This document shows positions 4,381 to 49,492 of a stretch of 64,000 nucleotides of DNA, one piece after another. Position 1 is the stretch's first letter, and each line of letters opens with the position of its first letter. Position numbers and translations under genes: made by a program. This DNA is from Negativicutes bacterium (lineage in GTDB: Bacteria; Bacillota; Negativicutes; UBA1444). The stretch covers positions 32,001-96,000 of the forward strand of contig CAXXIN010000003.1 of the NCBI GenBank assembly GCA_963665275.2, read 5' to 3'. The notes below the pieces were generated by a model. It saw only the letters and a program-made list of their open reading frames with translations, was not told where the DNA came from and did no database searches.

Positions 4381-4426
4381 AAAAACACAAGCTCCTCAGA
4401 TTTTGATCTGAGGAGCTTGTGTTTTT
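4381..4426. terminator. Family B hairpin (bidirectional terminator-like)
   Basis: aaaaacacaagctcctcaga-ttttga-tctgaggagcttgtgttttt perfect inverted repeat at the end of the GGDEF gene. Confidence 0.8.
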
Positions 4427-5327
4427 ATTGAAAACCATCGACCTGGTTTCTTCCCTTACTCTTTGCATCATGCAACCGATCGTCCGCGGTTTGGATCAGA
4501 TCGCCTGCCTTGTGTTTTTCACAAGTCGCGATACCCGCGCTGATGGTAATTTCTATGTTTGATTCCGTAAAGGGTGTCGATTCGATGAGCGAGCGAATTC
4601 GCTCCGCAAGGGTACAGGCGCCATCACAATCCGTGTTCGGCAAAATCAGCATAAGCGCTCCGCTGCCGAACCGTCCGGCGGTGTCCGACGGGCGCAGGAT
4701 CTGACACATGAGTTGCGCCGCTTCTTCCAGCACAGCATCTCCGATCCGGTATCCATGAATTTCGTTGATTTTTTTGAAATGGTCGATGTCCAGCATTACA
4801 ATGGATAAAGGCGTAACGTAGCGACGCGAACGCTCTATTTCATTTTCCAGCGTATTCATTAAAAAGGTATGATTGTACAGGCCCGTCAAGCTGTCTTTAT
4901 CGACACGGAGTTGAAGCATTTGATTAGCTTCCTCCAATTGTTTCTTCGCAACAAGTAACTGCTCCGTCACGGGGTTGATGGAAGAAACAATTTTGCTTAT
5001 GACTTCGAGCTTTGGAACCATATCGCTCTGTGAGCTTTCCTTGTTTTGCAGAGTAAGTTGTCGCAGATTGGCCTGCAGATATTTCAAAGCGTTTGCCATG
5101 GCCCCCGAATAACCCATATTCACTGTCAGATCCCCTTTTGCCAGGGCGAAGGTAAAGTTGCGGAACTCAAGCAGCATCTCATGCAACTCGGCCACGGCGG
5201 CATCCGAAGAATCAGCAGGCAATGGCGACGGCTGTTGATCAACCAGGGCACTTTTGAGCGCTTTCAGATCACCAGGCGCCATCTCGCTGCTGTGGCTTTG
5301 AAAAGTCATCTGTGATTCCTCCATCAT
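4425..5327 (-). CDS. GGDEF-domain protein with degenerate active site
   Basis: DSLTGLYN and DIDHFKKIN motifs; A-site reads GSGAL; RPSD I-site retained. Confidence 0.85.
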   Translation of the reverse strand: MMEESQMTFQSHSSEMAPGDLKALKSALVDQQPSPLPADSSDAAVAELHEMLLEFRNFTFALAKGDLTVNMGYSGAMANALKYLQANLRQLTLQNKESSQSDMVPKLEVISKIVSSINPVTEQLLVAKKQLEEANQMLQLRVDKDSLTGLYNHTFLMNTLENEIERSRRYVTPLSIVMLDIDHFKKINEIHGYRIGDAVLEEAAQLMCQILRPSDTAGRFGSGALMLILPNTDCDGACTLAERIRSLIESTPFTESNIEITISAGIATCEKHKAGDLIQTADDRLHDAKSKGRNQVDGFQ

Positions 5328-5490
5328 ACTGTTTGTCGGTACCCTCTCTGATCAATCCCGCAATGCTCTACAACAGAGGGATGATATCCATAGGATACAC
5401 TCAAATAAAGCCAATGGCATTATCACTATTGTTTAACAAACGCTCCTGAATCTTGTAAATTTATGTACAAACCGCTAGGTTCGCCAGCGG

Positions 5491-6378
5491 TCAATAAGGA
5501 GCCAATTTCGCGCCATAAGCGCCAAAATCGGTTCCCACGCCAACTTCGCCGGACAGAACTTCCCGCATGAATTTTCCTGTAACATAATTATCTATGCCAC
5601 TGCCGCCCACTCCTTCCAGGAAGAAGGCCGCAAATCCGACAATGAGAACATCATCTCTGCCTTGTGGATCGCCCTGCACAATAGGAATCACAATAATACG
5701 CGGCGAACCCGATCGAACTGTTTCAAAAGTCGCGGTGGGGTCCTGGTTGATTCGATAGGTAACTCCCTGTGAGGTTGGTCCTGAATTATTGCCGGGTTTC
5801 GTAGCAACCAGATCCCCAACCTTCAAAGGAGATTGATATCCCTCTTCGATATCCGTCCGATAAGCGCTAGCGCCGCTGCCGGACAAGGATAATGCACCGA
5901 AGTTTCCAGTGTTGCCGTCGCCTCCGCCGGCCTTTAAAATATAATCTACTCCATACGCCAGCGTTTTCTGTTGCAATCCAAACGGAACGATACCTGTATA
6001 CCCAATAATAACACCGACGTTGGCTCGCGCTTGTGCGCCAACGGTTGACATACCCGGTCCAAATATTTTGGCGAACAATAAATTGACATTGCGTGTGCCT
6101 TGAGCACGGATGCTATTATTGCTGTTGAGCACTTCAACGGCAACACCATCGCCGGCATTGCCGTTGATGGCTGCGTATTGTTTCGCCACTGCAATAGCGC
6201 CTGATGCGTCTGTCGGCAATTCCTGCGCGCCGGCCATGACTGCGACATCCACTGATTTTTGCAACTGCAATCGATTGACATACAAGATCCCCACATCGGT
6301 AACCAACGCGGTTATCCCGGTCATCACTGCCACCATGAGGGCAAAAAGAACCATCACCTGTCCCTTGTTATTCATCAC
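5491..6378 (-). CDS. TadG-like pilus assembly protein
   Basis: KGQ prepilin-like cleavage motif and hydrophobic helix; LQKSVD.A..AGA motif. Confidence 0.75.
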   Translation of the reverse strand: MMNNKGQVMVLFALMVAVMTGITALVTDVGILYVNRLQLQKSVDVAVMAGAQELPTDASGAIAVAKQYAAINGNAGDGVAVEVLNSNNSIRAQGTRNVNLLFAKIFGPGMSTVGAQARANVGVIIGYTGIVPFGLQQKTLAYGVDYILKAGGGDGNTGNFGALSLSGSGASAYRTDIEEGYQSPLKVGDLVATKPGNNSGPTSQGVTYRINQDPTATFETVRSGSPRIIVIPIVQGDPQGRDDVLIVGFAAFFLEGVGGSGIDNYVTGKFMREVLSGEVGVGTDFGAYGAKLAPY

Positions 6379-6761
6379 TCTGACCTCGCAGTCGTAGACG
6401 CTGAAATTGTGTATGGATTTGATGGCATCAACGAGGAAATAATTGGCGAACTAAAAGTGTGCTGCGTAGACACGGCTACCGCGACAGGCAACCCGGTCGT
6501 TCGAGGAGCCGGGGGCGTTATCGTCACCGCCAGATTTTTCATTGCGGGCATGGTTGCCTGAATTGAGGCTTCGATCGACGCCGTGGTTGCATTGGCATCC
6601 AATGACGCCAGCCTGGCGCCTTCTTTCGAAGCAAAGGTAATATTGATATATGAATTGAAAAAAAGTCCAAATTCGATAATCCCCATCACTAACAGTGCCA
6701 AGATGGGTAATATCAAAGCAAATTCAACAATTGCCTGTCCGCGATTATTCGTTTTCATCAT
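6375..6761 (-). CDS. TadE-like pseudopilin
   Basis: RGQAIVEFALILP...GIIEFG...ASKEGARLA. Confidence 0.85.
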   Translation of the reverse strand: MMKTNNRGQAIVEFALILPILALLVMGIIEFGLFFNSYINITFASKEGARLASLDANATTASIEASIQATMPAMKNLAVTITPPAPRTTGLPVAVAVSTQHTFSSPIISSLMPSNPYTISASTTARSE

Positions 6762-6948
6762 TTTATCCTTCCACAAGCTGGAGGTCGAGAATGACATTCT
6801 TTTCGCTTGATATTGGGGGCATTATCAGATTTTAGACAATTTTATTGTAGCACTTTCGCGAAAGTGTTCCATCGCCCGCAAGTCTTATTTCAAGTAGGAT
6901 TTTTGTCCTAATAAAGCTTGATTTGACTATGCGCAAAAAAAAGATGGC

Positions 6949-7611
6949 TTATTGCCAACCATCTTTGCCCTGGAGCGGCACAAACCGACACATGCCCTGC
7001 TCCTCGACCCGAAACCCCTTGTCCGTCCGATGGACCACCAACAATTTTTGCAGAGCTAGACTGCCTACTGGAATCACCAATCTGCCGCCTACGCGCAATT
7101 GTTGTTGCAGCGCCTCTGGTATCACTGGCGCACCCGCTGTCACGACAATGGCGTCATATGGCGCCACAGCGATCCACCCCAGCGATCCATCACCAACATG
7201 AACTTCCACATTTTCGAACCCGCTGCTGTGCAAACGCTCCCGCGCCGTTTCCGCCAACTCCCGCACCACTTCCATCGATATGACCCGGCGCGCCAAGCGG
7301 CTCAGAAGCGCTGCATTGTAGCCGCTTCCCGTCCCAACATCCAGAACCGTTTCCTCTCCAGACAACCGCATCTGCTGCAACATGTCCGCCACCATAAGGG
7401 GTTGGGAAATAGTCTGTCCATAGCCGATGGGTAGCGGATAATTGCCATAAGCGTCTTCGTCCTTCGTGCCCGGAAGGCAAAACCAGTGCCGCGGTACTGC
7501 CGCCATTACGGTTAGCACCCGTTGATCCACAATGTCTCTCTGTGCCAACTGCTCCTCGACCATACGTTCACGCAGCAACTTGGTCCTGGGCGTGTCAAGC
7601 AATTCTTTCAC
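6949..7611 (-). CDS. pcm: Protein-L-isoaspartate O-methyltransferase
   Basis: PIGYGQTISQP, VLDVGTGSGY, GDGSLGW...APYDAI and FVPL motifs. Confidence 0.93.
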   Translation of the reverse strand: MKELLDTPRTKLLRERMVEEQLAQRDIVDQRVLTVMAAVPRHWFCLPGTKDEDAYGNYPLPIGYGQTISQPLMVADMLQQMRLSGEETVLDVGTGSGYNAALLSRLARRVISMEVVRELAETARERLHSSGFENVEVHVGDGSLGWIAVAPYDAIVVTAGAPVIPEALQQQLRVGGRLVIPVGSLALQKLLVVHRTDKGFRVEEQGMCRFVPLQGKDGWQ

Positions 7612-9944: not shown

Positions 9945-10247
9945 TTACTGGATTTCAAACTGTTGATTCAAATGAGCCAGCTCAAACAAATCTTTTACGA
10001 GCCCCTGCAGACCCGTGATCTTTATGGTTCCACCCGCCTGGACAATTTGCTTGCGAACGAAAATCAGCATTCCCAGCCCCGTACTATCCATATAATCAAC
10101 TTGCGACAAATCAACCATAAACAGCTTATGACCTCGATTAATCAAATAAGTAAATGTCTCGCGCAACTCAGTCGCTTCCGCTATATAAATGCTACCTGAA
10201 ATATAAATGCACATTTGCCCGTTCATAAGTTTTGTCTCTCGGATCAT
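9945..10247 (-). CDS. STAS anti-sigma-factor antagonist (copy 1)
   Basis: VDLSQVDYMDSTGLGML; AAGGAGG RBS. Confidence 0.9.
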   Translation of the reverse strand: MIRETKLMNGQMCIYISGSIYIAEATELRETFTYLINRGHKLFMVDLSQVDYMDSTGLGMLIFVRKQIVQAGGTIKITGLQGLVKDLFELAHLNQQFEIQ

Positions 10248-10385: not shown

Positions 10386-10417
10386 ACAGCTCTTCGGACG
10401 AAAATCCGAAGAGCTGT
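10386..10417. terminator. Family B hairpin
   Basis: acagctcttcgga-cgaaaa-tccgaagagctgt. Confidence 0.75.
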
Positions 10418-10765: not shown

Positions 10766-11092
10766 TTCATCCTTTTGCCAATTTCAAATTTGTGGACATC
10801 AATACTGCGTTTTCACACTATTGTCTGTGGAAGCGGGATGAAAATTCAGCTATCGTGAAACAATGAATACAATCAATAGCGCCCAAAAGGCATTGCGAAA
10901 ATCCGCTCAATGTAAAATAATAGTAGTAACGATATGCGTTACACAGAGATAGAGAAAAAGTGCTTAGTCCTTCGCTGAGATCCGTAGAAAAGTTTGCGTA
11001 TTGCGGCAGTTCATATGTCGGCAATTGAAGATAAAAATAGCCAAAAATTAATTTCGGCCATAAATTACTCTGCTTAACCCAATGTTAAGAAA

Positions 11093-11175
11093 GGCAACCT
11101 GGCAATCATAGACCGTAATCCGTAGACCCATAGCTTTGCGTCCTTATCTTTCGATAAGTTTGCCGCGATTAAATT
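11093..11175 (-). ncRNA. Cyclic-di-GMP-I (GEMM) riboswitch
   Basis: Minus strand reads GGCAAACTTATC-GAAA-GATAAGGACGCAAAGCTATGGGTCTACGG...ATGATTGCCAGGTTGCC: GAAA tetraloop stem plus the GACGCAAAG/GGTCTA core. Confidence 0.88.
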
Positions 11176-14530: not shown

Positions 14531-14568
14531 AGAAAGACTCTTCGGATAATCACCCGAAGAGTCTTTCT
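14531..14568. terminator. Family B hairpin
   Basis: agaaagactcttcgg-ataatcac-ccgaagagtctttct. Confidence 0.75.
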
Positions 14569-15179: not shown

Positions 15180-15238
15180 TATTCTATGTTTTTAGCATAA
15201 TGGGCGGTCGCTATACCCATTTCTTAAACTTAACCCGA

Positions 15239-15284
15239 AAATATCAAGGCTCCTCGGAAGCAAATCCGAGGAGCCTTGATATTT
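15239..15284. terminator. Family B hairpin
   Basis: aaatatcaaggctcctcgga-agcaaa-tccgaggagccttgatattt. Confidence 0.75.
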
Positions 15285-15358
15285 TTCTGCACACTCTCGA
15301 TAGTTTACACCTGTCATTTCGCGAAAAGATGATATAGTAGTAGGGGAGCTGATTTTAA

Positions 15359-20252: not shown

Positions 20253-21590
20253 GATAGCGTACAATAAAGTTCGCAAAAGAGAATAGGAAAAACCATCGGC
20301 AACTCCGAAAAGGTAAGTGTCCAGCAAACCAAGAAGGAGTGTAGCGCCGATGGTTTACCAAAATTCTACCGTACCTTTTGAAAAAATGCTAATGAAATTT
20401 GTGGCAGACGACGATCCCATGCAGGAAATGCTCAAGTGGCTCTGCGAACGACTCATGGCAGCCGAAGTGGACGGCAAGCTGGAAGCCCAAAAATCAGAGC
20501 GAACCCAAACTCGCCAGGGATATCGCTCAGGTTATCGAGTCAGGCGATTTGACACGCGAATGGGGACAATGTATCTGATGGTGCCCAAGATCCGAAATGG
20601 CGGGTATATCCCATTCTTCCTGGAAGCCAGAAAACGATCCGAAGCCGCTTTGATGAACGTCATTCAGGAAGCCTATGTAAACGGCGTATCGACACGGAAA
20701 ATCGACAAACTCACCAAAAGTTTGGGGATCGACTCCATCTCCCGCAGTCAGGTTTCGGCCATCACCAAAGAATTAAATGAACAAGTTGAAGCCTTCCGCA
20801 ATCGCCAGTTGGAAGAGATCTATCCGGTTCTATGGGTGGATGCCTTGTATGAACGTATCCGCGATCACCATAGTGTTAAAAACATGGCGGTCCTGGTAGT
20901 TACAGGCATTAATTGCGACGGCAAACGCGATATCCTGGCGATTGAACCGATGGTTGAGGAATCCGCCGCCACGTATACCCAACTGTTCGACAATCTCAAA
21001 GCCCGGGGAGTAAAAAAGGTCTGGTTGGTTGTATCGGATGCGCATAAGGGGCTGGTCAAAGCCGTGAGGGAATCCTTCGTTGGTTGCGCCTGGCAACGCT
21101 GCAAAGTCCATTTCATGCGAAATATCTTGGCCCATATATCCAGCCGGGAAAAGAAAACCTTTGCGGAAAAACTCAAGCAAATCTGGCTCCAGCCTGACTA
21201 TGACAGCGCCAAAAAATATGCGGCGTCTCTGATGGACGATTATGAAACAAGATATCCGGAAGCGATTGCCACACTGGAAGACGGTCTGGAAGAATCGCTG
21301 CAGTTTTTCAGTTTCAATGAAATCGACTCGCGAAAAATCTCATCCACTAATCTGTTGGAACGGCTAAACAAGGAAATCCGGCGTCGAACAAAGGTGGTCG
21401 GTATCTTCCCGAGTATGGATTCCTATGTTCGCCTAGTAACCAGTTACTTGATTGAATACAGCGAGGATTGGTCTAGCGGGCGATCTTATATTCATCCCAT
21501 GATCATTACAGAGATCCAGCAAAAACTCGATGCGGCTGCTTAACCAAGCTGGAGTGCCGATGGTTTTTGCGAACATTATTTGACACTATC
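20253..21590 (+). mobile_element. IS256-family element with 8-bp target duplication
   Basis: Imperfect IRs GATAGCGTACAATAAAGTTCGCAAAA / TTTTGCGAACATTATTTGACACTATC; TSD AGTCTACG at 20245-20252 and 21591-21598. Confidence 0.93.
20350..21543 (+). CDS. IS256-family transposase
   Basis: YRSGYR, GVSTRK, DALY, SDAHKGL, WQRCKVHF.RN and STNLLERLNKEIRRRT motifs. Confidence 0.95.
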   Translation: MVYQNSTVPFEKMLMKFVADDDPMQEMLKWLCERLMAAEVDGKLEAQKSERTQTRQGYRSGYRVRRFDTRMGTMYLMVPKIRNGGYIPFFLEARKRSEAALMNVIQEAYVNGVSTRKIDKLTKSLGIDSISRSQVSAITKELNEQVEAFRNRQLEEIYPVLWVDALYERIRDHHSVKNMAVLVVTGINCDGKRDILAIEPMVEESAATYTQLFDNLKARGVKKVWLVVSDAHKGLVKAVRESFVGCAWQRCKVHFMRNILAHISSREKKTFAEKLKQIWLQPDYDSAKKYAASLMDDYETRYPEAIATLEDGLEESLQFFSFNEIDSRKISSTNLLERLNKEIRRRTKVVGIFPSMDSYVRLVTSYLIEYSEDWSSGRSYIHPMIITEIQQKLDAAA

Positions 21591-21708: not shown

Positions 21709-21754
21709 ACAACAAAGGGCAGCCAACCACGAATGATTGACTGCCCTTTGTTGT
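21709..21754. repeat. Family A hairpin (A1, variant outer stem)
   Basis: acaacaaagggcag-ccaaccacgaatgattg-actgccctttgttgt. Confidence 0.7.
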
Positions 21755-23185: not shown

Positions 23186-23342
23186 TCTTGTTCATCTCCT
23201 TCATTCTTCGCCTTTAATTGATGACTGGAATCGCAAATCCCGACTAGCTTTTCTCTTACCTTCATTATGAGCCGCAAATATGTCAAGATTGTGTCAAAAG
23301 CTTGTCAAATATAAGTAGTTTTCCATCTGGTTGTAAAATATA

Positions 23343-23381
23343 AAAAGCCAAGGCACCCGCTTAAGAGGCTCCTTGGCTTTT
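23343..23381. repeat. Family C hairpin
   Basis: aaaagccaaggcacc...ggctccttggctttt; related copies at 37524 and 40383. Confidence 0.65.
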
Positions 23382-23434
23382 TTTCGAGAACAATCCGAGC
23401 AATTATCTGCTTGATTGACTCTTTGCTATTGATA

Positions 23435-24634: not shown

Positions 24635-24856
24635 CGAGGTTCTTCCTTTCAATCCAACATTTTTATCTTCGCCAAAACACAATATATCATCAGTACGAAA
24701 AAATCTCCAGTCTGGTCGTACATCCTTTGCCCTCTTTATACTTCGCAACTCCATGATTGGCGCGTATTTCATGGCATTATCACAAACTTAAGCCGGTCGC
24801 AACAAAAATACTCCCCGGACAAACAGTCCGAGGAGCGTTAATAGGATTACGTTAAG

Positions 24857-27305: not shown

Positions 27306-27462
27306 TGTTTATTGCTCCTTTCGAAATCCTCAGCATCAACCATTGCCCAATCATCATCGACATCGTTTCCTTTGGATGATATCAGTTTAACACAACAGGA
27401 TTTGCATCATATAGCAGTTAAACGTTGCCGGGATTTAATCCATATCTATTGGCACGCAGCAA

Positions 27463-27493
27463 AAGGCTCCTCGGAGAAAATCCGAAGAGCCTT
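27463..27493. terminator. Family B hairpin
   Basis: aaggctcctcgga-gaaaa-tccgaagagcctt. Confidence 0.7.
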
Positions 27494-27525
27494 GATTTTT
27501 CTACGTTAATAGTCAAATAGTCCAA

Positions 27526-30317: not shown

Positions 30318-30429
30318 CAGTCCAGTTACACCAAACACCAGCAGCTTATCCTTCTCACGCGTCGGCACTCAGACTGCTGTAATTTTTTAAATCGATTATC
30401 AAATCATCGAAATTCAATCACCCAATACA

Positions 30430-30463
30430 AGAGGCTTCCAACTATGAATGGCTGGAAGCCTCT
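30430..30463. repeat. Family A hairpin (A2)
   Basis: agaggcttccaactatgaatggctggaagcctct. Confidence 0.75.
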
Positions 30464-30494
30464 GACTTTGATTATATGTTTTTATGACGTCACT

Positions 30495-31473: not shown

Positions 31474-31489
31474 TAATAACACTCCTCCG

Positions 31490-33686: not shown

Positions 33687-34269
33687 AAATACGACTCCTC
33701 TTTTTTACAGACTCCATTTTTACTACTTCTCTGTTAAAATTATTAAACCTTCATTAGTTGGTTACGTACTCCATTCCCAAATTATTCACACCAGCTGAGC
33801 CAAGCGAGCAAATATTACGGAATTATCTCACAGACCAAGGCTTCCTGGATGACAAAACAGCCTCTCATTCTCCTGAAAATTTTCTTATTCAGTTTTCTTG
33901 TTGTGCCCAACTGCCCCAATTTAATCTGGAAACACATAGGGCTTCCGCTGCAATTGCCGCCTCTGCAATGTCTTTCTCAGAAAAGGGGCAGTCCCGAATA
34001 TTATCTCAGCTTGGCATTTGCGCCCGCTCGGTTTAATTTGATAAAAAATCAGCGTTGGTTATGTTATCGGTGATCCGGTTAAGGCAGTGATAGAGAAATT
34101 ACTAACACCTGTGACGAGTTGCTGGATGAACTTGCGCTTAATTGACAGGCTCAAGTCAATTCGCTAGTATTGATGCATGGCTAAAGAATCATTTCACGAT
34201 CGCCATTTGGATCGCCAAACTTAAATGCGTTATCATTAATCACCCACAGAAAGGGTTGAAATCTTTAGT

Positions 34270-34920: not shown

Positions 34921-34956
34921 GTTGACCAAACAATCAAAATAATCCCCCAATAGCAA

Positions 34957-34990
34957 AGGGCTCCTCGGACGAAAATCTGAAAAGCCTTTT
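34957..34990. terminator. Family B hairpin (degenerate)
   Basis: agggctcctcgga-cgaaaa-tctgaaaagcctttt; copy of 46294. Confidence 0.65.
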
Positions 34991-36021: not shown

Positions 36022-36162
36022 TGTTCGCGTTTTTAGAATGACTTTCTCAAATCGCTCTCACTGCCAACCATCATCAAGAATAATCTTATTCATTGCCACC
36101 CAGACTGGCACTCGCTCACCAAACTGATCACCAACACCCCAAAAACTCTATCATCCAACACA

Positions 36163-36196
36163 AAAAGCTTCCGACCACGAGTGGCTGGAAGCTTTT
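36163..36196. repeat. Family A hairpin (A3)
   Basis: aaaagcttccgaccacgagtggctggaagctttt. Confidence 0.75.
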
Positions 36197-36199
36197 AAA

Positions 36200-37407: not shown

Positions 37408-37602
37408 ATTCTCTCCTTTACATATAGCGCCAGTAAATAGTTATTAACTCTTTACTGCAAAGGCACCTGCAATTTCTAATAATTGTATGTTGCCCCTCTG
37501 CCCCCTACTGATTCATCAACAATAAAAGCCAAGGCACCTTGTGATGAAGGCGCCTTGATTGGTTAATAATAATTTAAAAACTGTGAAGCTAAAAAAACGT
37601 CA

Positions 37603-37809
37603 TTAATTCTTGTTTAGAAGAATCAGCCCTATGGCGCAAAATACAACTCCCAGTGTTCTATTAAGAGCAAATCCCTCTTGGTAAAATAGAATACCTACTG
37701 GAATAAGCATAATGGCAAGCAGAATATTTGCAACTAAAGACCCTACACTTATATCCCATCCTGCCCTATACGCCATCAGCGTCCCAAACTCAAGTCCAAC
37801 AATTGCGAT
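37603..37809 (-). pseudogene. 3' half copy of the EamA gene at 40463-40900
   Basis: Near-identical to 40463-40668, including the downstream family C hairpin (37524-37560); 5' half missing. Confidence 0.85.
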
Positions 37810-37830
37810 ACTTCTCGCGCACAAAACATA

Positions 37831-37860
37831 AGGCTTCCAACCGCAAATGGCTGGAAGACT
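37831..37860. repeat. Family A hairpin (A4)
   Basis: aggcttccaaccgcaaatggctggaagact. Confidence 0.7.
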
Positions 37861-39446: not shown

Positions 39447-39480
39447 AAAGACTCTTCGGAATTACATCCAAAGAGCCTTT
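39447..39480. terminator. Family B hairpin
   Basis: aaagactcttcgga-attaca-tccaaagagccttt. Confidence 0.65.
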
Positions 39481-40192: not shown

Positions 40193-40462
40193 AGTTGAAC
40201 TTCCTCCGATATTATATTTATTAACAATCTAGTATTTTTTAGCATTTGCTATTTGATTTCCTTATTGTATCTATCTGTTCCTTGAGTCTATAGTCCTATT
40301 TCAATGAACCGAAGGACTCAACATTTCCAAACTGTACCCTTTACTTCTGCACCGCACGCCCCAAACATCATCATTAACAATAAAAAGCCAAGGCACCTTG
40401 TGATGAAGGTGCCTTGGTTGGTTAATAATAATTTAAGAAACTGTGAAACTAAAAAAATATCA

Positions 40463-40900: not shown

Positions 40901-41077
40901 CTCATTGACTTTATTCTAGTGTCGAAACCTCAAAGGTCGTATGAAATTACTGCATCGAGCAGAACTCCTACAGATAATTATTTTACCACACTAAATGTAT
41001 CCTGTAGATACGAACACCTTGCCTTTATGCCCCAAACCCACTTGCCCCTCTGTCCCAAACAATAAATCCATCCACCA

Positions 41078-42955
41078 ATCGAGTAGGAGGGGGCGGCGAG
41101 CCCCCGACCTCTCACACCACCGGACATGCGGGTCCGCATCCGGCGGTTCCCAAGGATTGACGAAGTTTTCCATAGTGTGCAAGCAAACTCAACAGCCCTT
41201 GACGTTCCCAATAGGTAACGTCGAGGGCATTATTTGTGTTGCGGGCCATGGCCCAGGGTCCCTTGCTGGATTTGGCCATCATCCACGCCGCCCACTCCGG
41301 TACGCCCAGCGCCCGGAGGTTTCGGAAACGTGTCCACGCCCTCTTCCATTGTTTCCAGAGGCACATGCGCAGTCGCCGCCGTAACCATTGGTCCAGTTCC
41401 CCGCAATGCTTCTTGGCCGATGCCACATGGAAATATCCAATCCAGCCCCGCAGATACTGGTTAACCTGCCGGATTCTTTCTTCCATCGCCACGGACCATG
41501 TTCGGTTCGTGAGTTGTCGGATTCTCTCCTTGCAACGCTCCAGCGTCTTTGGCGCTAACCGGATGGTTCCCGCTTTGTCGTTCAAGAAACTAAAGCCAAG
41601 AAACTTTCGCTTCCACGGTCGGTCTACTGCACTCTTCTCCCGGTTTACCTTGAGTTTGAGCTTGCCTTCCACAAACCGGACCACCGATTCCATCACCCGA
41701 ACTCCTGCCCGCCTGCTTCGCACGAACAAGTTGCAGTCGTCCGCGTAGCGGACGAACCGATGCCCGCGCCGCGCCAGTTCCCGGTCCAAGTCATCGAGCA
41801 GAATGTTCGACAATAGCGGACTCAACGGACCGCCCTGCGGCGTTCCCTCTGTTGTCCTACTTACTACGCCACATTCCATGACTCCGGCGCTTAAGTAACT
41901 GCGGATGAGTTTCAGAACTCGTTTGTCTCCCACTCTTCGCGCCACCCGCGCCATCAACATGTCGTGGTTGACCCGGTCGAAGAATTTCTCTAGGTCCATG
42001 TCCACGACAAACCGATAGCCTTCCCGGATGTGTTCCTGCGCCCGCCGGATTGCGTCATGCGACCGTTTCCCCGGCCGGAAGCCGTAGCTTTCCGGGCTGA
42101 AGTAAGGATCGAATATCTGGGTCAGTGTCTGCAGAAGGGCCTGCTGGATCAGGCGATCCAATACGGTTGGGATACCCAGCGCCCGCGTCCCGCCTCCGGG
42201 TTTTGGAATGTCCACCCGTTTCACGGGTTGCGGCCGGTAAGTTCCCGTTCGGAGCTGTTCTTTAGTTGTTTCCCAGTTGGTCTGGAGATATCCCGCCAGT
42301 GTGGCGGTATCCATCCCGTCGACGCCGGGAGCTCCTCCGTTTTGTTTCACCCGCTGGTAGGCGCGTTTCATGTTTTCCCGCTCCAGCGTTTTCTCCAGCA
42401 GTTCACCAGGGTCTTCGCGAGAGGGCAGGTCCACTTGTGCCGGTGATGGGCTCAGCGCTCCGGCATACTTTTGCGGCTTCACCGCTACTTTTTGCCGTAA
42501 GCCTTCTTCTGAAGTTGGCTGCTGTAATTGCTCATCACGCGAACGCATAGTTTCCCTCTCTTTCTTTGGGTTCGGCCCTTCCGGCGCGGCGTCCCGCTCT
42601 CCGTACTATGGCCTCGGCTGACTCCTGCGATTTCAGCGCCGCCTCACGGCGGCGGTTGCCGACTCAGTCGGCGTGACCGCAGGCCTCCCCGGATAAGAAC
42701 GTCATCTTTCCACTCATGCACCTGCCCAAGTTTACTGCTTCAGCCCTTGGCGGCTTCGGACTTCGTCTTCTCGTGCAGACTCGTCCGGCTGAAACAGCCT
42801 CAAATTGGGTTCGTATACCTCAGGTCGAGCATTTGCCTCCAGCTTCCTTCAGATTCCGTCTCGCGACGGACACCCTTGCTCTTGGCTAACGGTAGGCGCT
42901 CGCCAGCCCCCGCTCGGGACTTTCACCCTATAGACGACGCCCATGCCGGGCGTAC
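41078..42955 (-). mobile_element. Group IIC intron
   Basis: 5' GTACGCCCGGCATGGGCG..CTATAGGGTGAAAGTCCCG; DV GAACCGCCGGATGCGGACCCGCATGTCCGGTGGTGTGAGAGG; DVI ends CTCGAT; inserted just after a terminator-like hairpin. Confidence 0.93.
41112..42548 (-). CDS. ltrA: Group II intron reverse transcriptase/maturase (no En domain)
   Basis: GAPGVDG, R.LGIPT..DR..Q, GTPQGGPLSPLL and RYADD motifs; X domain GWIGYF. Confidence 0.95.
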   Translation of the reverse strand: MRSRDEQLQQPTSEEGLRQKVAVKPQKYAGALSPSPAQVDLPSREDPGELLEKTLERENMKRAYQRVKQNGGAPGVDGMDTATLAGYLQTNWETTKEQLRTGTYRPQPVKRVDIPKPGGGTRALGIPTVLDRLIQQALLQTLTQIFDPYFSPESYGFRPGKRSHDAIRRAQEHIREGYRFVVDMDLEKFFDRVNHDMLMARVARRVGDKRVLKLIRSYLSAGVMECGVVSRTTEGTPQGGPLSPLLSNILLDDLDRELARRGHRFVRYADDCNLFVRSRRAGVRVMESVVRFVEGKLKLKVNREKSAVDRPWKRKFLGFSFLNDKAGTIRLAPKTLERCKERIRQLTNRTWSVAMEERIRQVNQYLRGWIGYFHVASAKKHCGELDQWLRRRLRMCLWKQWKRAWTRFRNLRALGVPEWAAWMMAKSSKGPWAMARNTNNALDVTYWERQGLLSLLAHYGKLRQSLGTAGCGPACPVV

Positions 42956-42960
42956 ACACA

Positions 42961-42994
42961 AAAAGCTTCCAACCACGAATGGCTGGAAGCTTTT
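42961..42994. repeat. Family A hairpin (A5), intron target stem-loop
   Basis: aaaagcttccaaccacgaatggctggaagctttt, 5 nt from the intron 5' end. Confidence 0.8.
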
Positions 42995-43018
42995 ATATTT
43001 TGATCAATTCTGGTGATT

Positions 43019-43954
43019 TCATGTAATCACCATATATACAGGAATAGCAAACACTGCGAAAAGTGTTGTAATTGCCACCATTAAAGCTGCATATTCCGCG
43101 TCTGCTCCATATACCTTGGCAAGCACTGTATTATGACTCATGGCAGGCAAAGCGGCTTGAATAACAAAGACTTTTTTCATAAGTTCCGGAATTGGAAAAA
43201 AGAATACAACGATTAGAATGACTATAGGGGAGATCACAAATCTTCCGAGCAATATGGCCAGCAACTCATTGCTAAATTTTATTTTGTTTATTTGAATTCC
43301 AAATATTGTAATTCCAATAAACAGCATTGATAAAGGTGTGGTCATGCTTCCCAAATACTTGGTTGTGTTAATTGCAAAATCCGGCAAATGAATTCCGCAA
43401 AGTATCATGAATACTGCAACTGCAAAACCAACAAGTGGCGGAGAGCATACTCTCTTTACTGTTTTAAGACTCAGGATTTTCGCCGGAACCGCAGTTCCGT
43501 CCAAACTGATTGAATAATTGCCAATTGTCCAAAACAGAATAGCATTTGCGAGAAAGTATACCAAGACATAAGGAATGCTCTTTTCACCGAATAATGCCAA
43601 ATTAACCGGCACACCAACAAATACCGAGCTGGAGCAAAAGAAAATTGATCTGAAAGTTCCTGCTCTATTGGCAGGCAATTGTAGAGCCTTTGAAAGCAGA
43701 AAAGCTATGGCGAAACTGATAAGCATTGATATTATTGGAACGGCGATTCCATTAAGCATAAGTAAAAAGGCTGATTTATCAAAGGTGGTCAATAAATTCC
43801 AAATCATATATGTCGGCAATGCAACGTAATTTATCAATTGGGGTAGCAATTTTGAATTTTCTTGATTAAACCATCCTTTTGCAGCCAGGATATACCCTAT
43901 TGAAACCATTATGATAATGCTGACCAGCCCTTCCATCGCATGAAAAAATACCAA
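43019..43954 (-). CDS. AEC-family (auxin efflux/malate permease) transporter
   Basis: About 10 TM; VALP, F.GVPV..ALFG, SPP, MTTPLSM..IG and AALP motifs. Confidence 0.88.
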   Translation of the reverse strand: MVFFHAMEGLVSIIIMVSIGYILAAKGWFNQENSKLLPQLINYVALPTYMIWNLLTTFDKSAFLLMLNGIAVPIISMLISFAIAFLLSKALQLPANRAGTFRSIFFCSSSVFVGVPVNLALFGEKSIPYVLVYFLANAILFWTIGNYSISLDGTAVPAKILSLKTVKRVCSPPLVGFAVAVFMILCGIHLPDFAINTTKYLGSMTTPLSMLFIGITIFGIQINKIKFSNELLAILLGRFVISPIVILIVVFFFPIPELMKKVFVIQAALPAMSHNTVLAKVYGADAEYAALMVAITTLFAVFAIPVYMVIT

Positions 43955-44025
43955 TTTTCCCCCTCCTGCATTGTCAATGAAACATCTTCATTCCGCCTAA
44001 TAATTTATTACTGGCAAAAAGAAAC

Positions 44026-44418
44026 TCAATCCTTATAGTTTGGATAATAACACCCATTGATCATTTTCAATTCATCTGTATAGTTTTTGGCTTCCGTTGA
44101 ACTTACTGTTAGCTTGTCCTGAATCAGGTCTAAAATGCACTTTTTGCCTTCATTGTCGTACCCATCTACAAAAGCTAATGAAAGCAAATTGGAAAATACA
44201 ATCTGCCGGGTTCGACGGTCAGAGAAATTATTACAAAGCTGATCCAGGGATATTGGTTGTAACGAAACCTGAATTGGATTTATTGCCATTTCTTCAAGAT
44301 ACAAATTTATCAATTCTCGCTCAGTATATCCCAAGCAGCCATCAGATTTCGCGACTAAAAATGCCAGGTTTACAAAAGCATCTTTCTCGTGTTGTGTTTT
44401 TAAATCTGTCAAAAGCAT
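44026..44418 (-). CDS. TerB-like protein
   Basis: EKDAFVNLAFLVAKSDG....E and LAFVDG.D..E-like duplicated helical motifs. Confidence 0.6.
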   Translation of the reverse strand: MLLTDLKTQHEKDAFVNLAFLVAKSDGCLGYTERELINLYLEEMAINPIQVSLQPISLDQLCNNFSDRRTRQIVFSNLLSLAFVDGYDNEGKKCILDLIQDKLTVSSTEAKNYTDELKMINGCYYPNYKD

Positions 44419-44561
44419 TCTAATCCCTCCCTGATATTTTTGTTGACGTTAATTACTTCTGTGTGTATCATAATATCAAAGTTATAGTCATACATATAAT
44501 ACTAAATTACTTTATGATTCATAGGAAAAACTTATGTTAAGAAATATGGTGGGTAACGTTT

Positions 44562-45443
44562 ATGGATATAAAGCAGCTTAAATATTTTAGAGCCATTGTT
44601 GCAGAAGGCAATATTACCGGAGCAGCCACACGTTTATTTATGACGCAACCATCGCTAAGTCAACAACTGCATCTTCTTGAAAACGAGCTGGGTGTGAAGC
44701 TGGTTCAGAGAGGCAGCAGAAGGATTACCGTTACTGAAGCAGGTCGTTTATTAAATGACAGAGCTGGACAAATTTTAGACTTACTAAACGCCACCGCTTT
44801 GGAAGTAAAAGAGTTTCACGAAGGATATAAAGGCACATTGTCTATAGGAACAATTGCATCTTCCGGCGTGACACTATTGCCAAGCCTGATTCGGGACTAT
44901 CATCAACAATATCCTAATATCAATTTTCAATTATTGGAAGGTGATACCCCACGAATTTTGGATTTGTTGAAAAACGGTATAATTGAAATAGGCATTGTCC
45001 GAGCCGCTTTTGATGCAGAGCTTTATGATTGGGTGGACTTACCAACTGAACCAATGATTGCAGCCACTTCCCAAAAATGGAGTGGCGGAGATCACTCCCA
45101 ATATATTTCCATCAAGGATCTTGCAAACAAGCCATTACTGCTACATCGCAGCAATGAAACAATGATAATAGAATGCTGTCAGCGCGCTGGATTCCAACCC
45201 AACATTATCTGCAAGGGTGATGATGTCCGGTCTTTATTAGTTCTTGCCAATGAAGCGATTGGGCTTGCGATTGTGCCAAAATCCGCATTAGGTTTAGTCC
45301 CAGGCAATAATATAAAATATAGAGAGATTATTGATTCACCTTTAGAAATAAAGAAAGCAGCAGTCTGGTTGCGACAAAGATTCCTTTCCATTGCTGCAAA
45401 ACATTTTATTGATATGCTGCTATTACTCAAATCGAATTCTTAA
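44562..45443 (+). CDS. LysR-family regulator
   Basis: GNITGAATRLFMTQPSLSQQL..LE.ELG; divergent from the TerB-like/AEC genes. Confidence 0.93.
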   Translation: MDIKQLKYFRAIVAEGNITGAATRLFMTQPSLSQQLHLLENELGVKLVQRGSRRITVTEAGRLLNDRAGQILDLLNATALEVKEFHEGYKGTLSIGTIASSGVTLLPSLIRDYHQQYPNINFQLLEGDTPRILDLLKNGIIEIGIVRAAFDAELYDWVDLPTEPMIAATSQKWSGGDHSQYISIKDLANKPLLLHRSNETMIIECCQRAGFQPNIICKGDDVRSLLVLANEAIGLAIVPKSALGLVPGNNIKYREIIDSPLEIKKAAVWLRQRFLSIAAKHFIDMLLLLKSNS

Positions 45444-45609
45444 ACAAAGAAAATGTCTACTCGTCCTTCCCCTGCCCCTTCCTCCCCAAATATCATCAGT
45501 AAATACCGTCATTTACCGGCACCCAGACTGGCACTTGATCACCAACCCAAGTCAAAACCTTCAATGCATTATTCACCAATCGTTCGCAGAAAGGATTGAG
45601 AAGTTTAGT

Positions 45610-46260
45610 ATGAGTAGTAATCAATCATATGGACCCTGTCCAAAGACTCCCCACCCGATGCCAGGGCATCCCCGAGTATGCTACATAAAGAATGTCGTCA
45701 AAAACCCTAATATCATAATTGGTGACTATACCTATTATGATGATCCGGAAAATCCCGAAGAATTCGAAAACAATGTCTTATACCACTACGACTTCATAGG
45801 CGACAAATTAATCATCGGAAAGTTTTGTGCCATAGCCACTGGTGTCAACTTCATTATGAACGGCGCCAATCACCAAATGGATGCTTTGACAACGTATCCA
45901 TTTGGTATATTTGGCTCAGGATGGGAAGTAGGACAACCTGCGTTGGCCGACCTACCAATCAAAGGGGATACAGTAATCGGCAACGATGTTTGGATTGGCT
46001 ACCAATCAGTTGTGATGCCCGGTGTCAAGATTGGCGACGGAGCAATTATCGCTGCAAAATCGATCGTAACAAAAGATGTTCCCCCATACACAATTGTTGG
46101 CGGCAATCCTGCCAAGTTCATCAAACAAAGGTTTGACGATCAAGTTGTTGCAAAGTTATTAGCTATCAAATGGTGGGATTGGTCTGTCGAAAAAATTACT
46201 CACAATATACCTTTCTTGGTTAGCAATGACATTGAACAACTTATGAAAATAGAAGAATAG
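45610..46260 (+). CDS. Vat/CatB-like xenobiotic O-acetyltransferase
   Basis: IGDYTYYDD, LIIGKFCAIA, MNGANH, KGDTVIGNDVWIG and GGNPA..IK.RF motifs. Confidence 0.9.
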   Translation: MSSNQSYGPCPKTPHPMPGHPRVCYIKNVVKNPNIIIGDYTYYDDPENPEEFENNVLYHYDFIGDKLIIGKFCAIATGVNFIMNGANHQMDALTTYPFGIFGSGWEVGQPALADLPIKGDTVIGNDVWIGYQSVVMPGVKIGDGAIIAAKSIVTKDVPPYTIVGGNPAKFIKQRFDDQVVAKLLAIKWWDWSVEKITHNIPFLVSNDIEQLMKIEE

Positions 46261-46293
46261 GTTAAGCAAACAATCAAAATAATCCCCCAACAC

Positions 46294-46329
46294 AAAAGGC
46301 TCCTCGGACGAAAATCCGAAGAGCCTTTT
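46294..46329. terminator. Family B hairpin between convergent genes
   Basis: aaaaggctcctcgga-cgaaaa-tccgaagagcctttt. Confidence 0.8.
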
Positions 46330-46350
46330 ATCAACTATGCATATTGATTA

Positions 46351-47412
46351 CTATTTCAACAAATATTCAGCAGGACTATGAAATTCTCCTCCAGCCAGTT
46401 TCATCCGCACCACAGGAGCAGATTCAGCCAAATTCAATTTCTTTAAATCGATAGAGCGCAAACTCGGATTGTCTGCATCATAAAAATATATGACTTTGTT
46501 TTTGTGATCTCTTATGATCGTCCACAACGTGTAGTTATACGAACCCAAACCAGCGTATGCACTGGCTTCGACTCTTGCCTCCCCACGAACCACAGCCACC
46601 TTATTCATAATGGCGGTTGCGGTGGCAATCGCGGAGGGTAAACTCTGCGGTTCGTTCACGTATTTGTTAATCAAATACGCTTGCACGAAACGACGATCTT
46701 CATATATCACCACATCGTCATTAGACATCGCATTGGTATAATTGTTATATTTTTTCAAATTATTAATGTGCCAGTCATACGGGGGATCGTTTGTAACTAC
46801 TTTAATCGCGGAAATATCGTGGATTTTCATTTGACCATCGACAAATTCGATAACAATGCTCTCGCCGGTCTCGTCGCCGATGATTAAATGCTGCGGTGGA
46901 ATCATTTTGAGTTCTCCCGCATAATTGCCAGTAATGATTGTTTTTTGCAGCGCCTGTCGCAATTCAGCGATGTTAGAAAAATTCCCCAATACCCACTCAC
47001 TTGCGTATGTCAAAGGAATCACTTCACGGCTAGGATAACGTGCGGGCTCTGGATATTCTGCCCCTTCCATCCACTGCATCGCCACTGAGAGGCCCTTTTC
47101 ATTCAAACCATCACTAAAAACATCTCGTCCAAGCAGGTTAACGCCAACAAAACCATATTTTGTTTTCTTGTCGATTAAAATCCCTTCGGGATATTTCATC
47201 ATGGTCACGACGTGACCGGCAGGAACAACAACAATATCGGAATTCATCTCAATATCAAAATCCATATTGCGACCACTTACTACGTAGTTCCGCGAGTTTA
47301 GAAATACGCTTGTACAAGCTTCAGCCGGGAGCGCGGCGCCCCAGAAACTCAGAGTTAACGCAACCAGGCTATAAATGAAAAAATCCCGACGCTTGCTGAA
47401 TAAACAATTCAT
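46351..47412 (-). CDS. Secreted choloylglycine hydrolase / penicillin V acylase family protein
   Basis: Signal peptide AEA-CT (Ntn nucleophile Cys); GRNMDF, DGLNEKGL and TNDP motifs. Confidence 0.88.
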   Translation of the reverse strand: MNCLFSKRRDFFIYSLVALTLSFWGAALPAEACTSVFLNSRNYVVSGRNMDFDIEMNSDIVVVPAGHVVTMMKYPEGILIDKKTKYGFVGVNLLGRDVFSDGLNEKGLSVAMQWMEGAEYPEPARYPSREVIPLTYASEWVLGNFSNIAELRQALQKTIITGNYAGELKMIPPQHLIIGDETGESIVIEFVDGQMKIHDISAIKVVTNDPPYDWHINNLKKYNNYTNAMSNDDVVIYEDRRFVQAYLINKYVNEPQSLPSAIATATAIMNKVAVVRGEARVEASAYAGLGSYNYTLWTIIRDHKNKVIYFYDADNPSLRSIDLKKLNLAESAPVVRMKLAGGEFHSPAEYLLK

Positions 47413-47452
47413 ATTACCCTTCCCCCGCAACATTGCCTCAATGCAGATTATT

Positions 47453-47917
47453 CTACTGGAGTACATTCCATTTTGTCTCAACAGCCTTTGTCACTTCGTT
47501 ATTATTGTCCTTTAGCATATTCCGCTGCGCGTTTAGTGACGTCACTAATAGCCCCTTATCCAGCATAGACGATAATTGATCTTGGTTCATTTGCAGCATC
47601 TGCTGTCGGGTGTATGTCATCAGTTGCTCTTTCGTTTCCTGCTTCGTCTGGGTTTTAAGAAAGCTTTGACCCATCGTCTTCACCTGCTCAGGAGTCATCA
47701 CCACCATCATTTTATCGATTGCCCTAATGTACATCATTAAAACCATCTGATCTTTAAGCGCCGTTATCGCATCTTTCTCATTCGTAATCATCTGTTCGCC
47801 TTTAATCAAATCATTCATTGTTTTCTCACCGCTTGTCATGACCGGAGCCGCCAATACTGTTCCCATACTTGTAACCACCATCAGGATAACAAGAACAACT
47901 GTGAATCGCTTTAACAT
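47453..47917 (-). CDS. Secreted Met/Gln-rich helical protein (paralog 2)
   Basis: Close paralog of 31015-31473. Confidence 0.75.
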   Translation of the reverse strand: MLKRFTVVLVILMVVTSMGTVLAAPVMTSGEKTMNDLIKGEQMITNEKDAITALKDQMVLMMYIRAIDKMMVVMTPEQVKTMGQSFLKTQTKQETKEQLMTYTRQQMLQMNQDQLSSMLDKGLLVTSLNAQRNMLKDNNNEVTKAVETKWNVLQ

Positions 47918-48114
47918 AAGTAACACCCCTTATTTATTATTGTATTATTGATTTACGCTCTTTACCAAACGTTTTGGCAAAGCCTTTCTTTGTCCATGTT
48001 ATACGGTATCCGCTTAATTGAAAAGACATAAAGGAAAATCCGCAGGCTTTCGAGTAAAATTGGCAGGCTCGTCTGGACGATGGGAAAGCCTAAAACCATT
48101 CTTCTCCCAACAGA

Positions 48115-48150
48115 AAAAGGCTTCCACCCACGAATGGCTGGAAGTCTTTT
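48115..48150. repeat. Family A hairpin (A6)
   Basis: aaaaggcttccacccacgaatggctggaagtctttt. Confidence 0.75.
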
Positions 48151-48201
48151 ATATTTTAATCTTATTCAACTGCGTTAGTATTTCATATTCTGCCTGACGA
48201 T

Positions 48202-48657
48202 TTATTTTATCCTTCTAACCACTTCGTTATACAAGATTTTTGCAAGATCGCCATCGAGTGCAGCCCAATGTGCATCGGCAGGAAGGGTCTCTTTTAGGAT
48301 AACCTTATCGTTTTTATCGAAAAAGCTGAATTCTGTGGCTCTGAATGTCCGATCATTGATTTTCATTTCCTGGACAATCAAAAGGTACTCCACGTCAACA
48401 AAAGGATTCACGCCGCCTTTGCTCCACGCTGCGGCTCGAGTCTTTTTCGAATTTTCATCAAATGTTGTTTTTATCTTGTAATTGGCGATGTCTTTATCCT
48501 TATTATATACAACTGTCGCCACGTCAAGGTTGAGTGTCGTCCCGCCTAGTTCGCCGATTTTAACATATTGGGGCTGACTACAGCCCGTCATAACTAACGC
48601 AACAATAATTAGAACAAACAACGAAACCAAAGAACACGCCTTTTTCATTTGTGACAC
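48202..48657 (-). CDS. Hypothetical lipoprotein
   Basis: Lipobox MTGC. Confidence 0.7.
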   Translation of the reverse strand: MSQMKKACSLVSLFVLIIVALVMTGCSQPQYVKIGELGGTTLNLDVATVVYNKDKDIANYKIKTTFDENSKKTRAAAWSKGGVNPFVDVEYLLIVQEMKINDRTFRATEFSFFDKNDKVILKETLPADAHWAALDGDLAKILYNEVVRRIK

Positions 48658-48740
48658 CCCTTACCCTTCGATTGTTGAAACAGATACTCCTCCAGCCGCA
48701 AATGGTTGAAGGTCCTTGTTATTTTCACGACCCAAGATGT

Positions 48741-49247
48741 TCATTGCCGTATTAAGGCATAAATAAAAGAATCTGATACTATCCCATTTTTGTATATGCT
48801 ATTTTTCAACTTACCCTCCAATTGGAAGCCCGCCTTCTCAAGCACTCTAATAGACCCTGCATTATAGGAAAATATTTCTGCAAAAATCCTGACCACATCA
48901 TAAGATTGAAAGATTTCTCGGCACATTCGATTTACGGCTTCTGTCATAATTCCTTTGCCCCAGAAGTCTTCACCCAGCCAATACCCTATCTCGCAACATT
49001 TGCAGTGCACATCATCTTTGATAAAACACCCTATAACTCCAGCCGCTTCTTGATTTACAACAATGGCTCGAATGTATTGATTCTTTTCTTCGTTGTTCAT
49101 AGACTCATTTATAAAGCTTCTGGCATCCTCAACCGTATATGGATGCGGAAATATATTACGCAAGTTATTCGCTATATTATTGTTATTGGCATATTTCGCT
49201 ATGCTTATCGCATCAGAACTTTGCAGTTCTCTTAATTCAAAATCCAT
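48741..49247 (-). CDS. RimJ/RimL-type GNAT acetyltransferase
   Basis: FPHPYT, EIGYWLGEDFWGKG and N.GS.RVLEKAGF motifs. Confidence 0.9.
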   Translation of the reverse strand: MDFELRELQSSDAISIAKYANNNNIANNLRNIFPHPYTVEDARSFINESMNNEEKNQYIRAIVVNQEAAGVIGCFIKDDVHCKCCEIGYWLGEDFWGKGIMTEAVNRMCREIFQSYDVVRIFAEIFSYNAGSIRVLEKAGFQLEGKLKNSIYKNGIVSDSFIYALIRQ

Positions 49248-49381
49248 GCATTCGCCCTTCGCTTCTTTCGGAAAGTTTATGAAAGCATTTTATCATATCT
49301 GCGTTATCCGTCTCTACAATAGTCCTTTACAATCGCTCACCAAATCGATCGCCAAAAACCTTAAACTGCATCAACAAATAC

Positions 49382-49416
49382 AAAAGGCTTTCAGCCACGA
49401 ATGGCTGGAAGCCCTT
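49382..49416. terminator. Family A hairpin (A8) directly behind the selC 3' copy
   Basis: aaaaggctttcagccacgaatggctggaagccctt, 10 nt from the tRNA CCA. Confidence 0.8.
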
Positions 49417-49426
49417 ATATTTATTA

Positions 49427-49492
49427 TGGCGGGAGCGTGTAGGAATCGAACCCACCCAGGACGGGGTCACCGCCCCACACACGGTTTTGAAG
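49427..49492 (-). repeat. att site: duplicated 3' 66 bp of tRNA-Sec
   Basis: Identical to 55574-55639, from the anticodon loop to CCA. Confidence 0.93.

Follow-up and report, generated by a model that had tools for sequence, protein, structure and literature searches.

Hairpins behind selC in a Negativicutes genome as probable relics of a polarized stack of integrative elements

The region behind selC, the gene for selenocysteine tRNA (tRNA-Sec), in a Negativicutes bacterium (assembly GCA_963665275.2, contig CAXXIN010000003.1) is an island of small, unrelated genes punctuated by hairpins. We analysed 64,000 nt of this contig, hereafter the window, in which an earlier note had delimited a zone at 4381..49492 and listed 20 hairpins in three families, A, B and C. 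This zone (GC 42.9%, against 56.8% and 54.8% in its flanks) is probably an old, polarized stack of integrative elements that used the 3' end of selC as their entry point and have since been largely lost by deletion, most of the hairpins being their leftover ends. The zone does lie beside selC, as the earlier note had it, but the selC sequence at its edge (49427-49492) is a displaced 66-nt copy; the intact gene is at 55574-55671, so that the island extends to 55573.

The criterion for a tRNA-targeted island, an intact tRNA gene with a displaced direct fragment of its 3' end, describes the window and also the related loci L002 and L005/L008 introduced below. Between selC and its displaced copy lies the youngest layer, which has kept both attachment (att) sites, the criterion for a cis-mobilizable element (CIME): over 49427-55671 there are 66-nt repeats and arms at both ends. 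The features of this part are as follows.

55574..55671, minus strand: intact selC (tRNA-Sec), target of the stack (ARAGORN; Rfam RF01852)
55493..55563, minus strand: terminator after selC, outside families A, B and C, with a GTGCCA direct repeat pair (55493-55527); putative near arm of the youngest element
55302..55508, plus strand: tyrosine integrase remnant (C-terminal part), converging on selC (tblastn E 7e-6 to protein P0004, 6.5e-5 to the integrase of phage Abouo)
49493..55573, no strand assigned: youngest layer, a 6081-bp decayed element between 66-nt direct repeats, with HNH, P-loop ATPase and Ppl-like ATPase fragment (GC 39.9%)
49610..49670, minus strand: far arm of the youngest element, a tRNA-Ala 3' relic (49637-49670) followed by a GTGCCA pair (49610-49627); L008 has a homologous arm
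49427..49492, minus strand: displaced 3' part of selC, 66 nt, from the anticodon loop (100% repeat of selC)

The tRNA-Ala relic is 97% identical to an annotated tRNA-Ala (E 2e-7). It starts at the anticodon loop and adjoins the GTGCCA arm both in the window (49637-49670, minus strand) and in L008 (~15556-15590), which suggests that this element family may once have used, or passed through, a tRNA-Ala site.

The hairpins are tied to selC by related genomes. One genome scan, with the family A pattern only, returned 13 rows representing 10 loci (L001 to L010). Eight of these come from three Negativicutes/Veillonellaceae metagenome-assembled genomes (MAGs): CAZXCC, JBGSKE and CAZFSM. L009 overlaps L008 and was counted once; L004 and L007, single non-hairpin matches in unrelated phyla, were dropped as chance. 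L002 and L005 contain an intact selC and the same cobalt operon (73% identity), and in both an 11-nt spacer separates selC from the A hairpin; in the window the displaced copy is followed by an A hairpin at the same distance. Conservation continues for about 50 nt beyond the U-tract of the hairpin, up to a pair of TGGYGATC repeats, and then ends. This defines a module of about 94 nt made of a spacer, a terminator hairpin, a tail and two direct TGGYGATC repeats.

The corresponding slot in L001, after a variant 3' half of selC, is taken by a B hairpin. The order there (L001 4472-4770) is repeat pair, about 115 nt, selC piece, B hairpin and repeat pair, a layout like that of a phage attachment site (attP) for a heterobivalent tyrosine integrase, with direct-repeat pairs on both sides of the core. 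The selC half in question (L001 4608-4675) differs from the host-type gene in the variable arm and anticodon loop, and may thus derive from another species or from an element-borne copy. Ahead of the modules, selC remnants measure 61-67 nt (three cases), 23 nt (one), 10 nt (two, with one shared junction), 4 nt (two) and 0 nt (one), and the remaining modules start within the spacer or at the stem, with no selC remnant. In CAZFSM, family A was found near selC only, its three exact matches all lying within 28.2 kb of the gene on one 85-kb contig; in the two other MAGs the matches of this pattern, the only one scanned, lie on five small contigs. Core flanks of 12.6, 7.2 and 6.8 kb (about 26.5 kb, partly the same operon) contain no A, B or C hairpin. 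A blastn search with selC plus module against phages and plasmids matched the tRNA part alone (4 and 97 records, none covering 80%).

Different repeat pairs are also stacked behind the same hairpin, TGGYGATC being followed by GGGGCAGG-like or GTGCCA pairs (L002 ~1905-1950; L005 ~9945-9970; L008 ~15225-15270), an indication that one arm has been shared or captured by three or more types of integrase.

How could such a stack have arisen? Each element would have had a tyrosine integrase and an attP in which two repeat pairs enclose a 3' piece of selC and, after it, a replacement terminator of family A or B; the layout is observed, its use in integration is our proposal. Insertion at a tRNA 3' end is described as restoring the gene and displacing a fragment (PMC4383910), and by this established mechanism each integration would restore selC and push the older selC piece, terminator and arm outward, which would leave the module repeated in a single orientation. 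Repeated integration and decay are reported to yield tandems with the most decayed units outermost (PMC5704250, PMC7563491). Deletions would then strip the integrase, the far arm and the selC piece; layers keeping both att sites could excise again and those having lost them would stay stuck, while the hairpin would persist because it now terminates the last surviving gene. Local duplication, exchange between modules, an IS256 element and a group II intron, each seen in single cases, would have scrambled the stack further. Because of duplication and exchange, there can have been at most as many integrations as there are hairpins, and a hairpin does not necessarily stand for a layer of its own. 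Some distal B-like hairpins, and family C, may have arrived with the cargo as ordinary terminators.

Inverted repeats are indeed present at all 20 coordinates of the earlier note, and 16 pass a strict stem filter (24811, 34957, 39447 and 48690 are degenerate). The family patterns match 6 (A), 5 (B) and 3 (C) times against 0.00 expected in 100 shuffles, a significance that is overstated because the patterns were derived from these very sites. Relatedness was judged from an nhmmer profile and pairwise scores rather than a covariance model, and Rfam at its gathering threshold assigned no family to the hairpins. The view of all 20 as related holds for A and B, with their common spacer and tail; C is linked weakly. 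Further relics occur at 22250, 27880, 33940, 34198-34255 and ~45540. Read in the sense of selC, the hairpins present a stem, a short loop and a T-run; 17 of the 20 are more stable when folded in this sense and 15 lie within 70 nt of a minus-strand stop codon. Alignment of 24 A copies shows 91.4% pairing in the stem; 7 of its 15 pairs have changed on both sides and one is commonly G-U, this control being inflated by related sequences. With a GC-rich stem, short loop and U-tract after a stop codon or RNA gene, the hairpins would behave as intrinsic terminators. A sigma-70/terminator scan of 30001-50000 gave 22 terminator-like sites against 16.9 +/- 4.5 in shuffled sequence, but such a scan misses most stems of this length. 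Another hairpin with a perfect 24-bp stem (13005-13056) lies outside families A-C and has a weak tail score (28.4).

The earlier note saw in the hairpins possible junctions of an undescribed process rather than independent terminators. This is supported in part. Many do appear to be relics of junctions confined to the selC island, and not independent terminators: they stand behind selC or selC pieces in relatives, are followed by conserved repeats past the U-tract and are absent from the 26.5 kb of core flank. They are also terminator-like, and cargo breakpoints are not enriched at the listed ones over gene ends (see below). The data do not support the need for an undescribed process; the module has a known tyrosine-integrase att-arm layout.

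To what extent does this module account for the window? We scored hairpins against module references from other genomes, with 304 random island positions as null (maximum 29), and 13 of the 20 score above this maximum. The tail was scored against 1500 positions not conditioned on a T-tract, and p-values of 0.02-0.06 were for that reason not counted. Six tails exceed the null maximum, all at 30.4 kb or beyond and thus selC-proximal. A p-value of 0.004 is attained by a further two; the 8 distal copies all fail the tail test. The farther a hairpin lies from selC, the lower its module score tends to be (rho -0.45, p 0.029, n=24: the 20 listed hairpins plus 4 extra ones, with 2 unrelated hairpins omitted). 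From selC outward, the features are:

49335..49426, minus strand: complete module, with 11-nt spacer, A terminator hairpin, tail and TGGYGATC-type pair; also found after intact selC in L002, and in L005 up to the first repeat
48686..48721, minus strand: degenerate A hairpin 25 nt past the stop of a GNAT gene, without tail (score 31 against null maximum 29)
48097..48155, minus strand: A module with partial spacer and tail (module and tail scores, profile)
46282..46336, minus strand: B module with tail, flanked by the Vat and CBAH genes, which converge (score 76; tail 36.0)
45613..46260, plus strand: Vat-family acetyltransferase (streptogramin A) (NCBIfam; 91.5% identical to L002 4-636)
42956..43000, minus strand: A hairpin targeted by an intron, the tail resuming beyond it (alignment, tail score)
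41078..42955, minus strand: group II intron with reverse transcriptase (RT)/maturase (Rfam; TIGR04416)
40383..40419, minus strand: C hairpin after full EamA gene (score 30; weak tail similarity 28.0, p 0.004)
39447..39478, minus strand: B-like hairpin (score 26, not above background)
37818..37860, minus strand: A hairpin, its tail joined to the interior of a truncated EamA copy (alignment)
37513..37821, minus strand: truncated EamA copy plus C hairpin (37524-37560) (94.9% identical to 40371-40679)
36114..36199, minus strand: A module with full tail and repeat pair, without selC piece (E 2.6e-14; tail 54.2)
34938..34990, minus strand: B module with tail, after second Vat copy and deleted CBAH copy (module and tail scores)
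34270-34925, plus strand: second Vat copy, premature stop after 182 codons (sequence comparison)
34198..34255, minus strand: tail and repeat pair where the Vat duplication ends, hairpin missing (profile, alignment)
30392..30469, minus strand: A module with eroded tail (profile, module and tail scores)
27459..27503, minus strand: B hairpin with spacer, without tail (score 70; tail 17.6)
24808..24837, minus strand: degenerate B hairpin (score 29, equal to null maximum)
23342..23382, minus strand: C hairpin, no module link found (score 18)
21709..21754, minus strand: divergent A-loop hairpin behind a Nif11-type precursor gene (profile E 0.0018 but score 24)
20253..21590, plus strand: IS256-family element, a passenger (Pfam, NCBIfam)
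15238..15285, minus strand: B hairpin, 1018 nt from any minus-strand gene (score 50)
14531..14568, minus strand: B-like hairpin (score 26, not above background)
10386..10417, minus strand: B hairpin between tandem STAS genes (score 53)
4381..4426, minus strand: B-like perfect 21-bp hairpin at a GC boundary by citrate lyase genes (not above background)

Several observations weigh against an old stack of elements. Seven of the 20 hairpins (4381, 14531, 21709, 23343, 24811, 37524 and 39447) are not above background, a selC piece is present at one only, and none of 4 C copies has its hairpin beside such a piece. The distance trend is weak in CAZFSM (rho -0.19, p 0.57, all 11 hairpins; -0.83 only without 2 of them). 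The A hairpin of L006 is tail-less, on a 5.2-kb contig without selC. At five junctions the CCA end of the tRNA is no more than 10 nt away, tighter than expected of random deletion. The A scan did not return the source genome, the B and C patterns were scanned in no collection, and no module is adjoined by an intact integrase. The 19 hairpins without a selC piece are not CIMEs keeping both att sites; they appear to be relics of a post-CIME stage.

Integrases have left remnants only. Intact tyrosine integrases are absent, C-terminal remnants alone being found, from the DNA covered in the window, L001, L005 and L008 (CAZFSM 61044-68433 lies outside it). That of the window (55302-55508) has no Pfam hit and, used as query, matched nothing in phages. 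The remnant at L008 10770-11036 is 98% identical to the 383-aa protein P0001 and adjoins a 23-nt selC piece plus module; one of the P0001 family lies beside the B module of L001 (1968-2051), and another is 160 nt from selC in L005 (9764-9877). These remnants are phage-type: P0001 is 35% identical to the integrase of phage Abouo (KC595517), which has repeat pairs and a hairpin beside it, and scores 25 bits against a cut-off of 265 with the integron integrase model TIGR02249. Searches for a close relative of P0001 in its genomic context yielded none, the best matches reaching 35% in phages and 33% in plasmids. Since no intact integrase stands beside a module, we infer the pairing of integrases with repeat types, the TGGYGATC-type repeats being putative integrase arm sites.

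Could the array instead be active, and move its cargo precisely? Small integrase-less units (0.7-2.5 kb) bounded by modules would then be cut out, inserted and swapped by an integrase acting in trans, with crossover at the CCA end of selC. We regard this as unlikely, but several junctions speak for it. In L002, a 1.2-kb HxlR plus FMN-reductase unit without integrase lies between two modules sharing 96% identity across 104 nt, and there is a 10-nt direct repeat; L010 has the same junction. A Nif11 unit is duplicated in tandem in L008 (84%), its edge being the first base after CCA; two modules retain just the last 4 nt of selC, and the five junctions near CCA mentioned above fit as well. A GNAT unit, 95% identical between the two loci, lies behind A in the window and behind B in L001, the switch occurring at the repeat pair. 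Vat adjoins the repeat pair in L002, where its stop overlaps the repeat, and B in the window; it is 91.5% identical between these genomes, whose core operon, on the same L002 contig, is only 73.4% identical.

Cargo breakpoints tell against precise movement. We aligned 17 cargo homology blocks with 32 ends (2 ends at contig edges having been dropped), and 5 of the 32 lie within 30 nt of a listed hairpin, a rate above that of random positions (4.3%) but not above that of gene ends (8.7%, p 0.14), a result unfavourable to precise cassettes. Once the extra relics are included, the count rises to 9 of 32; this is significant at 30 nt (p 0.02) but at neither 60 nor 100 nt, and is partly circular, as one relic was added after the alignment was seen. 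Among the junctions at modules, the EamA truncation point is 10 nt from hairpin 37831. Most block ends are apparently ordinary deletions or gene borders. Furthermore, the selC remnants differ in length (0 to 67 nt), erosion of the tails is uneven, cargo is internally deleted and one junction falls inside an integrase gene. Equally unlikely is a selC-anchored capture platform of Negativicutes, in which integrase-less units of one to three genes, each headed by the 94-nt module, would enter and leave at the CCA end through a phage-type integrase in trans, be duplicated in place and pass between species.

It is more improbable still that the hairpins are ordinary repeated terminators, or repeats resembling repetitive extragenic palindromes (REP), of the host or of low-GC donors and unrelated to integration. 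Their terminator features, the seven without a module link, the tail-less copies in L006 and at L005 9628 and a genome-wide scan limited to A are compatible with this, and for family C and some distal B hairpins, though not the whole set, it may hold. Yet in four genomes modules immediately follow selC or a piece of it, their repeats are conserved past the U-tract, core flank (26.5 kb from three genomes, partly the same operon) has none, and in CAZFSM they cluster on one contig. Hardly any credence is left for an integron cassette array lacking its integrase (CALIN) with the hairpins as attC sites, an analogy drawn by the earlier note. The short, same-strand, unrelated genes of cassette-like families recall one, CALIN have been recorded in Firmicutes (PMC4889954) and class C introns can also insert at attC sites (PMC4424553). 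But attC R boxes flank none of the 20 hairpins (motif search without positive control), stems measure 30-46 nt with U-tracts, many genes retain their own promoters and regulators, several units are multi-gene, P0001 falls far from the integron integrase cut-off, and the survey has no complete integron in Firmicutes (PMC4889954).

Three other candidates were set aside: Tn7-like ends, which would not duplicate a terminator; ends of IS200/IS605 or of REP and their RAYT transposases, for which no terminal motifs were noted (L005 has a Y1 transposase 8.6 kb from selC); and retro-copies of the tRNA trailer, as the repeat pair sits past the terminator.

A decayed stack of elements at selC has a close parallel in the streptococcal tandems that comprise integrative and conjugative elements (ICE), integrative and mobilizable elements (IME), CIME and microCIME (PMC5704250, PMC7563491). 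These likewise result from serial site-specific integration at the end of a gene, comprise 1-13 kb units that have lost the integrase, and are most decayed farthest from that gene; the gradient in the window resembles the one reported there. Unlike here, the S. salivarius survey has at most three elements per stack, against 13 module-related hairpins (6 with tails) over 39 kb, and CIMEs by definition keep both att sites, whereas all but one have lost the tRNA core in the window. The islands of Islander (PMC4383910) likewise have a restored tRNA and a displaced 3' fragment; the 66-nt repeat corresponds to their anticodon-loop crossover, and the 23- and 10-nt selC pieces lie near their T-loop and junction subsites. 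Islander records 4 tandems of three or more among 3919 islands (PMC4383910), but, as described there, it requires an integrase and a fragment for each layer, so that this stack would be invisible to it and the counts are not comparable. The attP of Lactobacillus phage mv4 (bioRxiv 10.1101/2023.11.06.565760) and that of Brevibacillus phage Abouo (KC595517) also have, at each end of a site of 200-300 bp around a core, a pair of adjacent direct repeats, for a heterobivalent tyrosine integrase; repeat sequence and target differ, and the arm predicted here has a replacement terminator that outlives the element. Integron and CALIN arrays (PMC4889954) have polarized small unrelated genes with related palindromes between them, but here there are no attC boxes or IntI, the palindromes are terminators linked with the end of a tRNA, and most breakpoints lie elsewhere. 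We found no such stack in Negativicutes in the literature searched (titles and abstract openings, with few subscription papers covered). Accretion of decayed elements at a tRNA gene is already known; its depth and erosion here seem unusual.

If this reading is correct, a tRNA hotspot can become a cassette-like array without any integron, terminator-bearing att arms outlasting the elements as punctuation. Island finders requiring an integrase and a tRNA fragment for each layer would overlook such stacks, and the module offers a marker for counting layers and ordering them in time. The near-identical cargo across species (GNAT 95%, Vat 91%) shows a pool still moving among Negativicutes. Precise recombination of small units in trans, if true, would represent a new capture system, and an integron-like array in a phylum nearly devoid of integrons.

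The group II intron encodes an intact-looking RT of 478 aa and has GTACG at its 5' end. It is probably of class C, as it inserted just after a terminator; such introns insert at terminators and less often at attC sites (PMC4424553). Stacks of this kind supply many targets for terminator-seeking introns.

The cargo is much as the earlier note described it: dozens of short modules, mostly on the minus strand (43 of 54 curated open reading frames (ORFs) of the zone), with GNAT, NUDIX, SnoaL, EamA and STAS genes found by Pfam and a Vat-family gene above the NCBIfam cut-off. Where at least five modules had been said to recur as diverged, truncated or deleted copies, we count seven gene modules, with 73-95% identity between copies, and two promoter blocks: STAS (three copies), a Gln/Arg-rich secreted protein (two), Vat (two), CBAH (full and deleted), a 157/168-aa hypothetical protein (two), EamA (full and truncated) and a 125-aa hypothetical protein with a fragment. 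The reported lack of an integron integrase was also borne out: the Pfam scan of 79 window ORFs found no integrase domain, nor any intact integrase, relaxase or type IV secretion system domain.

Rfam places a c-di-GMP-I riboswitch (11090-11174, minus strand) upstream of the tandem STAS genes and a cobalamin riboswitch (60222-60404, minus strand) upstream of the cobalt operon. Nif11-leader genes resembling precursors of ribosomally synthesized and post-translationally modified peptides recur as single-gene units behind modules (window 21871-22101; L008 1415-1777, 9412-9825 and 10111-10512; L001 11735-12139; the L008 1415 ORF has no Pfam hit), with no modifying enzyme seen in the DNA examined. 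An aldehyde dehydrogenase gene at 18534-19790 is 76.5% identical to L008 1-1257, at a similar distance from selC (36-38 kb); this is near the core-gene level, and the distal zone may therefore be old and vertically inherited. The selC-proximal layers carry defence-like cargo (window 49684-55226, minus strand; L008 12013-15241; L005 4634-8707), with HNH, P-loop ATPase and a Ppl-like fragment, helicase and DUF2290, and AAA/OLD-like, UDG-fold and FRG genes, unlike the distal layers, which hold metabolic and housekeeping-type single genes.

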